DNA of 64,000 bases from Escherichia coli (GTDB taxonomy: Bacteria > Pseudomonadota > Gammaproteobacteria > Enterobacterales > Enterobacteriaceae), in NCBI RefSeq assembly GCF_045037415.1, contig NZ_CP173438.1. One strand, written 5' to 3'. The stretch's first letter is position 1, and each line of letters opens with the position of its first letter. A model generated the notes under the pieces. The model saw only the letters and a list, made by a program, of their open reading frames with translations, was not told the DNA's origin and made no database searches. This document shows positions 10,840-47,665 of the stretch, in pieces. A program made the position numbers and the translations under genes.

Positions 10840-10880
10840 AAAAAAAAAGCCCGCACTGTCAGGTGCGGGCTTTTTTCTGT
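10840..10880 (-). promoter_or_regulatory. thr operon attenuator: intrinsic terminator hairpin (gcccgcac..gtgcgggc) with U-tract between thrL and thrA
   Basis: GC-rich inverted repeat flanked by A8 and T6 runs, positioned between leader peptide stop and thrA start. Confidence 0.85.
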
Positions 10881-10894
10881 GTTTCCTGTACGCG

Positions 10895-10963
<69 letters not shown>

Positions 10964-19044: not shown

Positions 19045-19584
<540 letters not shown>

Positions 19585-19587
19585 TTA

Positions 19588-19658
19588 GGCGTTCACGCCG
19601 CATCCGGCATTCGGTGCACGATGCCTGATGCGACGCTGACGCATCTTATCAGGCCTAC
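19588..19658. repeat. REP/BIME element (two inverted REP units) in yjjX-trpR intergenic region
   Basis: Contains cgccgcatccggca and gatgcctgatgcgacgc..atcaggcctac, matching the REP consensus seen elsewhere in the window. Confidence 0.75.
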
Positions 19659-37831: not shown

Positions 37832-38335
37832 TGCCGGATACGGCCTACGGTTCGGCACAGACTTGTAGGCATGATAAGACGCGACAAGCGTCGCATCAGG
37901 CATTATGCGCCGACTGCCGGATGCGGCGTGAACGCCTTATCCGGCCTACGGTTCGGCACAGACTTGTAGGCATGATAAGACGCGTCAGCGTCGCATCAGG
38001 CATTGTGCGCCAACTGCCGGATGCGGCGTGAACGCCTTATCCGGCCTACGGTTCGGCACAGACTTGTAGGCATGATAAGACGCGTCAAGCGTCGCATCAG
38101 GCATTGTGCGCCAACTGCCGGATGCGGCGTGAACGCCTTATCCGGCCTACGGTTCGGCACAAACCTGTAGGCATGATAAGACGCGTCAAGCGTCGCATCA
38201 GGCATTGTGCGCCAACTGCCGGATGCGGCGTGAACGCCTTATCCGGCCTACGGTTCGGCACAAACCTGTAGGCATGATAAGACGCGACAAGCGTCGCATC
38301 AGGCATTATGCGCCGACTGCCGGATGCTGCCTACG
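37832..38335. repeat. BIME/REP tandem array: about 5 copies of a 100-101 bp unit, each built from two inverted REP sequences
   Basis: Direct repetition of gccggatgcggcgtgaacgccttatccggcctacggttcggcaca(g/a)ac(t/c)tgtaggcatgataagacgcg(a/t)caagcgtcgcatcaggcatt(g/a)tgcgcc with period 100-101 bp between convergent yjjW and yjjV. Confidence 0.9.
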
Positions 38336-44907: not shown

Positions 44908-45939
44908 ATGTCTGCATTTACCCCGGCAAGTGAAGTCTTGCTGCGTCACAGTGATGATTTCGAACAAAGCCGTATTCTGTTTGCCGGAGACTTACAGGAT
45001 GACCTGCCCGCGCGTTTAGATACCGCGGCCAGCCGTGCTCATACCCAGCAATTCCACCACTGGCAGGTGTTAAACCGCCAGATGGGGGATAACGCCCGTT
45101 TTAGCCTGGTCGCCACGGCGGATGATGTCGCTGATTGCGATACTTTGATTTACTACTGGCCGAAGAATAAACCGGAAGCCCAGTTCCAGTTGATGAATTT
45201 ACTTTCTCTGCTTCCGGTGGGCACGGATATTTTTGTCGTTGGCGAGAACCGCAGCGGCGTGCGCAGCGCCGAGCAGATGCTGGCCGATTATGCGCCGTTG
45301 AATAAGGTAGACAGCGCCCGTCGCTGCGGCCTCTATTTTGGTCGTCTGGAAAAGCAGCCGGTATTTGATGCCAATAAATTCTGGGGCGAATACAGCGTCG
45401 ATGGCTTGACGGTCAAAACGCTGCCGGGCGTGTTTAGCCGCGACGGTCTGGATGTCGGCAGTCAGTTGTTGCTCTCGACGCTAACCCCGCACACGAAAGG
45501 TAAAGTGCTGGATGTCGGCTGCGGCGCAGGCGTTCTTTCCGTTGCTTTTGCGCGCCATTCACCGAAGATCCGCCTCACTCTGTGTGATGTTTCTGCACCA
45601 GCGGTAGAAGCCAGTCGCGCAACACTTGCTGCCAACAGTGTTGAAGGTGAAGTCTTTGCCAGCAACGTCTTTTCCGAGGTGAAAGGTCGTTTTGATATGA
45701 TCATCTCCAACCCGCCGTTCCACGATGGGATGCAAACCAGCCTGGATGCGGCGCAAACGCTGATTCGCGGCGCGGTGCGTCATCTTAATAGCGGCGGCGA
45801 GCTGCGAATTGTAGCGAACGCCTTCCTGCCTTACCCGGACGTGCTGGATGAGACATTTGGTTTCCACGAAGTGATTGCGCAAACCGGGCGCTTCAAGGTG
45901 TATCGCGCCATTATGACCCGCCAGGCGAAGAAAGGTTAA
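44908..45939 (+). CDS. rsmC: 16S rRNA (guanine1207-N2)-methyltransferase RsmC, 343 aa
   Basis: ORF 44908..45939; SAM motif [12 protein letters not shown] and [10 protein letters not shown]. Confidence 0.94.
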
Positions 45940-46069
45940 GTATCTGATATCTGTCGCCGCATACCGTGTTGGATGCGGCGTACACGCCTTATCTGACCGA
46001 CAAACGAATTATCCACAATCCGCTGATGGACATTTTTCCAGCAATTACACCTCTGTCGATAATTAACTA

Positions 46070-46097
46070 TTGACGAAAAGCTGAAAACCACTAGAAT
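46070..46097 (+). promoter_or_regulatory. Candidate sigma70 promoter for the tRNA-Leu operon (-35 ttgacg, 16-nt spacer, -10 tagaat), AT-rich upstream region
   Basis: Near-consensus hexamers about 40 nt upstream of first tRNA. Confidence 0.6.
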
Positions 46098-46138
46098 GCG
46101 CCTCCGTGGTAGCAATTCTTTTTAAGAATTGATGGTAT

Positions 46139-46225
46139 GCGAAGGTGGCGGAATTGGTAGACGCGCTAGCTTCAGGTGTTAGTGTCCTTACGGACGTGGG
46201 GGTTCAAGTCCCCCCCCTCGCACCA
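46139..46225 (+). tRNA. leuQ: tRNA-Leu (anticodon CAG), 87 nt, copy 1
   Basis: gcgaaggtggcggaattggtagacgcg...ttcaagtcccccccctcgcacca; long variable arm; CAG in anticodon loop; encoded CCA. Confidence 0.95.
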
Positions 46226-46253
46226 AAAACCACGTTGATATTGCTCGCACTGG

Positions 46254-46340
46254 GCGAAGGTGGCGGAATTGGTAGACGCGCTAGCTTCAGGTGTTAGTGT
46301 TCTTACGGACGTGGGGGTTCAAGTCCCCCCCCTCGCACCA
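46254..46340 (+). tRNA. leuP: tRNA-Leu (anticodon CAG), 87 nt, copy 2 (one-base variant: agtgttcttacgg vs agtgtccttacgg)
   Basis: Same sequence as copy 1 except a single C to T difference in the variable arm. Confidence 0.95.
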
Positions 46341-46374
46341 AACGAGGCAATATCAAAAAAAGTAAGATGACTGT

Positions 46375-46461
46375 GCGAAGGTGGCGGAATTGGTAGACGC
46401 GCTAGCTTCAGGTGTTAGTGTCCTTACGGACGTGGGGGTTCAAGTCCCCCCCCTCGCACCA
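46375..46461 (+). tRNA. leuV: tRNA-Leu (anticodon CAG), 87 nt, copy 3
   Basis: Identical to copy 1. Confidence 0.95.
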
Positions 46462-46499
46462 ATTATCTTTACTTCTTTTCTTGTCTCTTCACTGTTTTA

Positions 46500-46736
46500 T
46501 CACCCCTGATTCAAATTCATTATCATCAGCATGATGCCAGCAATAAGCGCCAGGCACGATGGTAGCAAAACGTAATGCCGTAACTGTTTGTGATACAGCA
46601 TCACCGGCGTCAATACCAATCCCATCAGAATGACAATCCGCCATTGATCCGGCGATAAATCCGCATACATCAGCCCTGTAATCAGCAATCCCGGCAGCAA
46701 CACTCCCCAGCCACTGCCCAGCGTACGTTGCAACAT
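46500..46736 (-). CDS. yjjZ: Small inner-membrane protein YjjZ, 78 aa (start MLQRTLGSGWGVLLPG)
   Basis: ORF 46500..46847; hydrophobic small protein divergent from fhuF. Confidence 0.75.
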   Translation of the reverse strand: MLQRTLGSGWGVLLPGLLITGLMYADLSPDQWRIVILMGLVLTPVMLYHKQLRHYVLLPSCLALIAGIMLMIMNLNQG

Positions 46737-46876: not shown

Positions 46877-47665
46877 ATGGCCTATCGTTCCGCACCGCTC
46901 TATGAAGATGTTATCTGGCGAACGCATCTCCAGCCACAGGATGCTGGGCTTGCACAAGCCGTACGTGCGACGATCGCCAAACATCGTGAACATTTGCTCG
47001 AGTTTATCCGCCTGGATGAACCCGCTCCGCTTAACGCCATGACGCTGGCGCAATGGTCATCACCGAATGCGCTAAGTTCTCTACTCGCGGTCTATTCCGA
47101 TCATATCTATCGCAACCAACCAACGATGATCCGCGAGAACAAACCGCTGATCTCACTATGGGCACAATGGTATATCGGCCTGATGGTGCCACCATTAATG
47201 CTGGCGCTACTGACGCAGGAAAAAGCATTAGATGTGTCGCCGGAACATTTCCATGCTGAGTTTCACGAAACCGGCCGTGCCGCCTGTTTCTGGGTCGATG
47301 TGTGTGACGATAAAAACGCAACACCACATTCGCCGCAGCAGCGAATGGAAACGTTAATCAGCCAGGCGCTGGTTCCGGTTGTGCAGGCACTAGAAGCGAC
47401 CGGAGAGATCAACGGCAAACTTATCTGGAGTAATACCGGTTATTTGATCAACTGGTATCTCACTGAGATGAAGCAACTGCTCGGCGAGGCGACGGTTGAA
47501 TCGCTGCGCCATGCCATCTTTTTTGAGAAAACGCTCACGAACGGTGAAGATAATCCACTCTGGCGTACCGTGGTACTGCGCGACGGCCTGCTGGTGCGCC
47601 GCACTTGCTGCCAGCGTTATCGCTTACCGGATGTGCAGCAATGTGGCGATTGTACGCTGAAATGA
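46877..47665 (+). CDS. fhuF: Ferric-siderophore reductase FhuF (2Fe-2S), 262 aa
   Basis: ORF 46877..47665; C-terminal Cys cluster CCQRYRLPDVQQCGDC. Confidence 0.93.
   Translation: MAYRSAPLYEDVIWRTHLQPQDAGLAQAVRATIAKHREHLLEFIRLDEPAPLNAMTLAQWSSPNALSSLLAVYSDHIYRNQPTMIRENKPLISLWAQWYIGLMVPPLMLALLTQEKALDVSPEHFHAEFHETGRAACFWVDVCDDKNATPHSPQQRMETLISQALVPVVQALEATGEINGKLIWSNTGYLINWYLTEMKQLLGEATVESLRHAIFFEKTLTNGEDNPLWRTVVLRDGLLVRRTCCQRYRLPDVQQCGDCTLK

Follow-up and report, generated by a model that had tools for sequence, protein, structure and literature searches.

The leuV-leuP-leuQ operon of Escherichia coli, its leuP isodecoder of tRNA-Leu(CAG) and its variation among strains

Introduction

The closest described system is the leuQPV operon of Escherichia coli, which Mohanty and Kushner studied in K-12 derivatives. 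In their Northern data, a single precursor, named QPV, comprised the 5' leader and all three tRNAs (PMC2190699). This precursor builds up only when RNase P is inactive, the loss of RNase E having no effect, and its half-life exceeds 32 min once RNase P is inactive (PMC2190699). They presumed Rho-dependent termination because of the sequence and because pnp rnb mutants have a precursor that is longer by about 40 nt, and the 3' trailer is trimmed exonucleolytically by PNPase and RNase II (PMC2190699). The same authors mentioned, without showing the data, that the RNase P sites lie buried in stems according to structure predictions (PMC2190699).

Two other kinds of operon can be set beside this one. 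Like the leucine array, valV-valW and the other tRNA operons processed by RNase P only lack U-rich RNase E sites downstream of the CCA ends, terminate in a Rho-dependent manner and have their tRNAs separated by RNase P (PMC2190699); they differ by the tRNA encoded and by their copy numbers. The leuT gene encodes the same tRNA-Leu(CAG) as the array but, unlike it, occurs singly within a mixed operon and is RNase E-dependent (PMC2190699), and it has the C48 form in E. coli. Here, we describe an array of three tRNA-Leu(CAG) genes that corresponds to the leuQPV operon, and we look at its variant middle copy, at the pairing potential of its non-coding parts and at its variation among strains and genera.

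Results

The array and its variant base

We analysed a stretch of 64,000 nucleotides of E. coli DNA (contig NZ_CP173438.1), called the window below. When ARAGORN was run on this 64-kb window, three tRNA genes were found, all of them tRNA-Leu with the anticodon CAG and all on the + strand. The array is made of the following elements.

46139-46225, + strand: tRNA-Leu(CAG) copy 1, promoter-proximal (leuV in GenBank naming), with C at position 48 (base 46186); ARAGORN, Rfam and K-12 comparison
46226-46253, + strand: spacer 1, 28 nt; its 5' part is complementary to the transcript 5' end and its 3' part would pair with spacer 2
46254-46340, + strand: tRNA-Leu(CAG) copy 2, that is leuP, isodecoder Leu-CAG-2-1; ARAGORN, copy alignment, K-12 comparison and literature
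46301, + strand: variant base, T for C at tRNA position 48 (V13), inside agtgttcttacgg, in the third pair of the variable-arm stem
46341-46374, + strand: spacer 2, 34 nt; would pair with spacer 1 and with the trailer
46375-46461, + strand: tRNA-Leu(CAG) copy 3, promoter-distal (leuQ in GenBank naming), with C at position 48 (base 46422)

The array is 323 bp long and each tRNA gene 87 nt, and the coordinates agree with the 28- and 34-nt spacers of the original prediction, which had been made from the letters of the window. Each of the three copies scored 48.5 bits with the Rfam tRNA model (RF00005), for a gathering score of 29, and Tandem Repeats Finder detected one array at 46139-46462 with 2.7 copies and a score of 497. 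When the copies were aligned, 86 of the 87 columns were invariant, the sole difference being position 48, which reads C, T and C in the three successive copies. The triple tandem array with a divergent middle copy, as originally predicted, is thus borne out by ARAGORN and by the re-alignment, in which the copies are not identical. Three 87-nt copies at 99-100% identity cannot have originated by chance. Every one of the three genes ends with an encoded ACCA, and all have a long variable arm. This arm consists of a 4-bp stem (positions 46-49 with 54-57: G46-C57, U47-A56, C48-G55 and C49-G54) with the loop UUAC. The C to T change of the middle copy does lie in the variable arm, as had been claimed, at a position that is paired with G55 in the stem: T48 turns the C-G pair into a U-G wobble, and the cloverleaf energy goes from -30.0 to -27.1 kcal/mol, a cost of about 2.9 kcal/mol.

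A 1.4-kb query around the array matched E. coli chromosomes at up to 100% identity, with rsmC upstream and yjjZ and fhuF downstream, and three tRNA-Leu genes occupy this position in a K-12 record as well. Compared base by base with K-12, the tRNA genes are identical, T48 of leuP included, and so are spacer 1 and the 89-nt upstream region that contains the promoter and the leader. The leuQPV operon of K-12 also shares the 28/34-nt spacing and the rsmC and yjjZ/fhuF neighbours, but one base of spacer 2 differs (A here, G in K-12), the trailer has a few substitutions, and the region between rsmC and leuV contains fewer REP elements here and falls 68 nt short of its K-12 length. With the K-12 genes and spacers found at the rsmC-yjjZ/fhuF position, as expected of an orthologue of E. 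coli leuV-leuP-leuQ, and with identical genes, T48, upstream region and spacer 1 and a single substitution in spacer 2, the locus is the leuV-leuP-leuQ (leuQPV) operon. The operon, its three tandem genes and the leuP isodecoder are already known, and the finding is real but ordinary; the original prediction did not recognise the leuQPV operon, and the low interest that it gave to the array is therefore fitting.

The promoter-proximal gene is leuV in GenBank U00096 and in the promoter literature. Gene naming runs in opposite orders in the literature and in the annotation, the middle gene being leuP in both: Mohanty and Kushner labelled the promoter-proximal gene leuQ, according to the trailers in their Table 1 (PMC2190699). 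In the legend of their Figure 5, the nucleotide sequences of the leucine genes are called identical and the leuP difference is ignored (PMC2190699).

Whether the variant is expressed had been left open by the original prediction, which stated that it may or may not be. This point is settled positively in the literature. A tRNA-seq study used leuP as a reference apart from the identical leuQ, leuT and leuV, the variant is catalogued as isodecoder Leu-CAG-2-1, and both isodecoder populations were detected in cellular tRNA.

Promoter, leader, trailer and neighbours

The regions on both sides of the array contain the following features.

44908-45939, + strand: rsmC (16S rRNA m2G1207 methyltransferase), upstream neighbour; 343-aa ORF, RefSeq annotation of the identical stretch in strain 4/1-1, synteny in other genera
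45959-45998, - strand: REP-like palindromic element between rsmC and leuV; weak match to Rfam naRNA4 (REP-derived), 24 bits, below the gathering score
46070-46097, + strand: leuV promoter, -35 TTGACG (46070-46075), 16-nt spacer, -10 TAGAAT (46092-46097); 10/12 in a consensus scan
46098-46105, + strand: GC-rich discriminator GCGCCTCC; read from the sequence, invariant in the cross-genus alignment
46113-46131, + strand: putative leader hairpin CAATTCTT / AAGAATTG with a 3-nt loop; perfect 8-bp inverted repeat
46462-46541, + strand: 3' trailer, T/C-rich and G-poor; presumed zone of Rho-dependent termination
46500-46736, - strand: yjjZ (DUF1435), convergent downstream neighbour; ORF, RefSeq annotation of identical sequence
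46877-47665, + strand: fhuF, after yjjZ; ORF, RefSeq annotation of identical sequence

The near-consensus promoter that had been proposed at 46070-46097 matches the consensus at 10 of 12 positions and is identical in K-12, and its core, TTGACG-16-TAGAAT-GCGCCTCC, recurs without any change in each of the 34 orthologous arrays collected from other genera. Both features looked for in a sigma-70 stable-RNA promoter are found, namely near-consensus hexamers with a 16-18-nt spacing and a GC-rich discriminator. The invariant hexamers, the 16-nt spacing and the discriminator fit a strong stable-RNA promoter, and from the position of the -10 hexamer the transcription start is predicted near 46104-46106. 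GC-rich discriminators are typical of stringently controlled stable-RNA promoters, and the leuV promoter may be controlled by ppGpp/DksA and Fis, the response expected of this promoter class. The Holmes laboratory has reportedly published work on the leuV promoter. That this promoter drives the array, as was also claimed, is consistent with the Northern data, in which the three genes and the 5' leader make up one transcript (PMC2190699).

On the 3' side, a terminator scan of the + strand found no intrinsic terminator hairpin beyond 46461. Of the 80 nt that follow the array (46462-46541), 26% are C and 9% are G, so the trailer has the sequence expected of a Rho-dependent terminator, that is, no intrinsic hairpin and a C-rich, G-poor RNA. 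The missing hairpin and the excess of C over G agree with the published presumption of Rho-dependent termination.

Upstream, the region between rsmC and leuV (45940-46138) measures 199 nt here and 267 nt in K-12. The megablast matches of many strains break in 45940-46069, upstream of the promoter.

Predicted pairing between the non-coding parts of the precursor

In the precursor, the leader, the two spacers and the trailer could pair with one another to form three helices, in addition to the leader hairpin.

46105-46110 with 46229-46234, + strand: putative helix 1, 6 bp, CGTGGT of the transcript 5' end with ACCACG of spacer 1
46235-46247 with 46343-46356, + strand: predicted helix 2, 13 bp with one bulge, spacer 1 with spacer 2, enclosing leuP
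46364-46370 with 46463-46469, + strand: predicted helix 3, 7 bp, spacer 2 with the trailer

Over the 34 pairs of the three helices and the leader hairpin, 95.4% of the cells were standard-paired in the 34-sequence cross-genus alignment, as against 27-52% in a control in which the partners were slid by one to three columns. Compensatory changes were observed at two pairs of the leader hairpin (GC to AU in 5 sequences, AU to UA in 15) and, as double changes, in helix 3 (UA/AU and GU/UA), and one pair of helix 2 goes through the series UA, UG and CG. Calculated independently of the alignment, the helix 2 duplex reaches about -15 kcal/mol in 33 of the 34 taxa, where no more than 1 of 200 shuffles did as well. 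The corresponding values are -8.9 kcal/mol for helix 1 (z = -2.4 against shuffles) and -7.5 kcal/mol for helix 3 (z = -1.8). The predicted helix 2 pairing is thus strongly supported, covariation backs the putative leader hairpin and helix 3, and for candidate helix 1 the support comes from conservation only.

In the literature searched, we found no account of these helices being conserved or covarying, and Rfam has no family for the leader or the spacers. The bracketing helices around each tRNA may be a new observation. They resemble the leader-trailer stems of the rRNA operons in that the flanks of each mature RNA are complementary and would join its 5' and 3' ends. Compared with those processing stems, the helices are short (6, 13 and 7 bp), and RNase III-type excision is unlikely. 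We rejected this kind of excision for the bracketing helices on two grounds: the longest has 13 bp with a bulge, short of a two-turn duplex, and the uncut precursor persists without RNase P (PMC2190699). In our reading, the helices would prevent mispairing among the three repeated tRNAs and protect the 5' end and the spacers from RNase E.

Variation among E. coli strains

The comparison of copy number among strains, suggested as a check together with the original prediction, was run on 5,426 complete E. coli genomes, the variant being counted over 5429 records. With junction-specific queries, the junction between copies 1 and 2 was found in 4979 of the 5426 genomes and that between copies 2 and 3 in 4984 of 5426. 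Each inter-gene junction is therefore kept in about 92% of the genomes, and nearly all such arrays have three copies. About 8% of the genomes have neither junction; those that were inspected, such as O157:H7, have a single gene with the leader of copy 1 and the trailer of copy 3. Coverage of 80% or more of the array was useless as a count of three-copy arrays, joined repeat pieces giving 88% for one-copy loci. The exact 70-mer bearing the variant was present in 4791 of 5429 records (about 88%). This 70-nt homopolymer-free query replaced the full 87-nt copy (4536 exact records), because the 'non-exact' three-copy arrays of 25DN and ET474 carry T48 but have a miscalled C8 run.

Other forms of the array are rare. 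Two-copy arrays were seen in 1 of 30 and in 0 of 60 sampled rows. By direct inspection, we observed a two-copy T-C array in AVS0747 (NZ_CP124467.1), a homogenised C-C-C array in SW07096 (NZ_CM129859.1), a C-T-T array in 25DN, and a four-copy C-T-T-C array in EC7072022BGR (NZ_OY856299.1), in which leuP and spacer 2 are duplicated. These one-, two- and four-copy forms and the C-C-C and C-T-T forms indicate that the array is subject to unequal recombination and gene conversion. The array had been described as recombination-prone, and arrays of one, two, three and four copies and a homogenised array among E. coli genomes agree with this description.

In the public 'complete' genomes of 25DN, ET474, O157:H7 Z1814 and EC7072022BGR, the C8 run, which goes from the T-stem into the acceptor stem, is read as 5, 6, 7 or 9 C. 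Such miscalls give annotated tRNA-Leu genes of 84-86 or 88 nt and distort exact-match counts. The differences in length are probably long-read homopolymer errors. The 86-nt tRNA of O157:H7 Z1814 was rejected as a real acceptor-stem deletion (all its Leu-CAG copies are short of the intact sequence); O157:H7 RIMD 0509939 has a normal 87-nt gene, and the 86-nt gene is probably an assembly artefact. The survey thus shows clearly how a tandem tRNA array varies within a population, and it warns that long-read assemblies often miscall the C8 run.

Near-identical copies of tRNA-Leu(CAG) were also met at eight or nine places on E. coli plasmid records, for example at 248292-248380 of NZ_CP170379.1, a 294-kb record.

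The variant in other genera and in leuT

An exact-pattern scan for the variant, with one genome per species, returned at least 120 loci; it reaches only arrays with at least one T, and the rate at which the variant is lost is therefore not measurable from it. The loci listed belong to Enterobacter, Citrobacter, Klebsiella, Raoultella, Kosakonia, Salmonella enterica subsp. arizonae and Escherichia albertii, and also to Proteus, Morganella, Xenorhabdus, Photorhabdus and others. Outside the E. coli collection, and among the matches listed, the three-copy arrays read C-T-C in 33 of 36 cases, C-C-T in two and T-T-C in one. Wherever flanking sequence exists, rsmC and yjjZ flank the arrays in other genera, with identities outside Escherichia of 82-91% for RsmC and 55-72% for YjjZ, and these shared flanks make the arrays orthologous. 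Of the 34 distinct arrays, 32 keep the copy-specific state, whereas pairwise identity in the unconstrained trailer is only 43%.

In many Enterobacteriaceae, leuT has exactly the U48 sequence of leuP, and that of E. whittamii is U48 as well. Judged from these comparisons, C48 of E. coli leuT is the derived state, acquired in the E. coli lineage or in a close ancestor, and the variant is ancient rather than a strain-level mutation. The conservation of the C-T-C order, with rsmC/yjjZ synteny, across many genera of Enterobacteriaceae may be a new observation. That the C/T/C state is kept while the unconstrained flanks are saturated argues for some constraint, against pure neutrality.

In Enterobacter sp. 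EA-1 (CP025776.1), the middle copy is without three bases in the anticodon stem-loop region (GCGCTATCAGGTG versus GCGCTAGCTTCAGGTG); it is either a pseudogene or an assembly error.

Discussion

We regard it as almost certain that the region is the E. coli leuV-leuP-leuQ operon with the leuP isodecoder, processed and varying in the way outlined here. The operon contributes three of the four genes from which the cell makes tRNA-Leu1, its major leucine tRNA (anticodon CAG). Transcription from a strong sigma-70 stable-RNA promoter would give a single tricistronic precursor, with a leader that measures about 35 nt, and RNase P alone would separate this precursor into the individual tRNAs; Rho-dependent termination would occur in the G-poor trailer and be followed by trimming by PNPase and RNase II. 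The leuP allele is long-established, with U for C at V13 in a pair kept as a U-G wobble, outside the anticodon, and leuP is a second expressed Leu-CAG isodecoder, one without a known distinct function. Occasional unequal recombination and gene conversion among the repeats produce the copy-number and allele variants of the strains. In this account, the anatomy, the identity with K-12, the population frequencies and the cross-genus conservation come from the present analysis; co-transcription, processing, termination and expression of the variant come from the literature; and the functional neutrality of the variant is deduced.

The difference in the middle copy might be thought a sequencing error or a recent mutation private to the strain. 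Public assemblies do err in these genes, as the calls of 5-7 or 9 C for the C8 run in several long-read genomes testify, but this T also occurs in K-12, in 4791 of the 5429 E. coli records and, among the matches listed, at the middle position of 33 of the 36 three-copy arrays of other Enterobacteriaceae, so that we give this reading practically no credit. Hardly more probable is a failure of the variant copy to mature, as a silent or defective pseudo-tRNA. Its cloverleaf is some 2.9 kcal/mol less stable; against this, the copy scores as high as the other two in Rfam, a U-G wobble preserves the pair, and both isodecoder populations are detected in cellular tRNA.

A more serious question is whether the C-T-C order is a neutral relic or is kept by selection, either because the U48 isodecoder has a role of its own or because the mismatch cuts the homology of adjacent repeats from 87 to 47 bp and thereby guards against stepwise deletion. 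In favour of selection, the copy-specific state persists in 32 of 34 orthologous arrays in which the trailer has fallen to 43% pairwise identity and the neighbours of the arrays to 82-91% (RsmC) and 55-72% (YjjZ). Moreover, one-copy arrays, which arise via recombination between the two identical outer copies, are far commoner in E. coli (about 8%) than two-copy ones (1/30 and 0/60 sampled rows). These counts are nevertheless weakened by the dominance of the heavily sampled O157:H7 clone among one-copy genomes, genome counts not being event counts, and the cross-genus figure by an ascertainment bias, the scan having taken only arrays with at least one T. Arrays of the CCC, CCT, TTC and CTT types exist and are evidently viable, and the leuT of E. 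coli switched to C48 whereas that of E. whittamii is U48. The variable arm is not known to serve E. coli LeuRS in recognition or as an identity element, and we infer that the C to U change is neutral for charging. On balance, selection for the C-T-C order seems unlikely to us, though it is far from negligible, and the reading of leuP as a long-established isodecoder without known distinct function is preferred.

A broader idea, which we put forward tentatively and consider rather doubtful, is that the non-coding parts and the one variable base are under selection as a design at the RNA level, with helices that clamp the tRNAs, a covarying hairpin and a maintained C-T-C order. If it were true, the helices would explain both the processing by RNase P only and the high stability of the uncut precursor, and the maintenance of C-T-C would reflect a role of the U48 tRNA or a mismatch that limits recombination between adjacent repeats. 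The conserved helices would offer a testable structural answer to the puzzle of 2007, that is, buried RNase P sites and no role for RNase E.

Other observations

Elsewhere in the window, naRNA4 elements (REP325-type) are present as four tandem copies at 37868-38248 (- strand) and as one isolated copy at 19578-19655 (+ strand), with scores that all exceed the gathering score of Rfam. At 10840-10959 (- strand) lies the threonine operon leader (thrL attenuator); its presence indicates that the window spans the conventional origin of the E. coli map, with a K-12-like distance of 35 kb between thrL and leuV. Strain 4/1-1, which matches the window at 100% identity over the leu region, carries a lambdoid prophage with its integrase next to yjjG (NZ_CP023844.1, 5067212-5110405), followed by a TIR-domain reverse-transcriptase defence gene. 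An integrase or prophage beside the array, suspected from this strain, was rejected for the window: it is absent there, and the 35-kb spacing is that of K-12.
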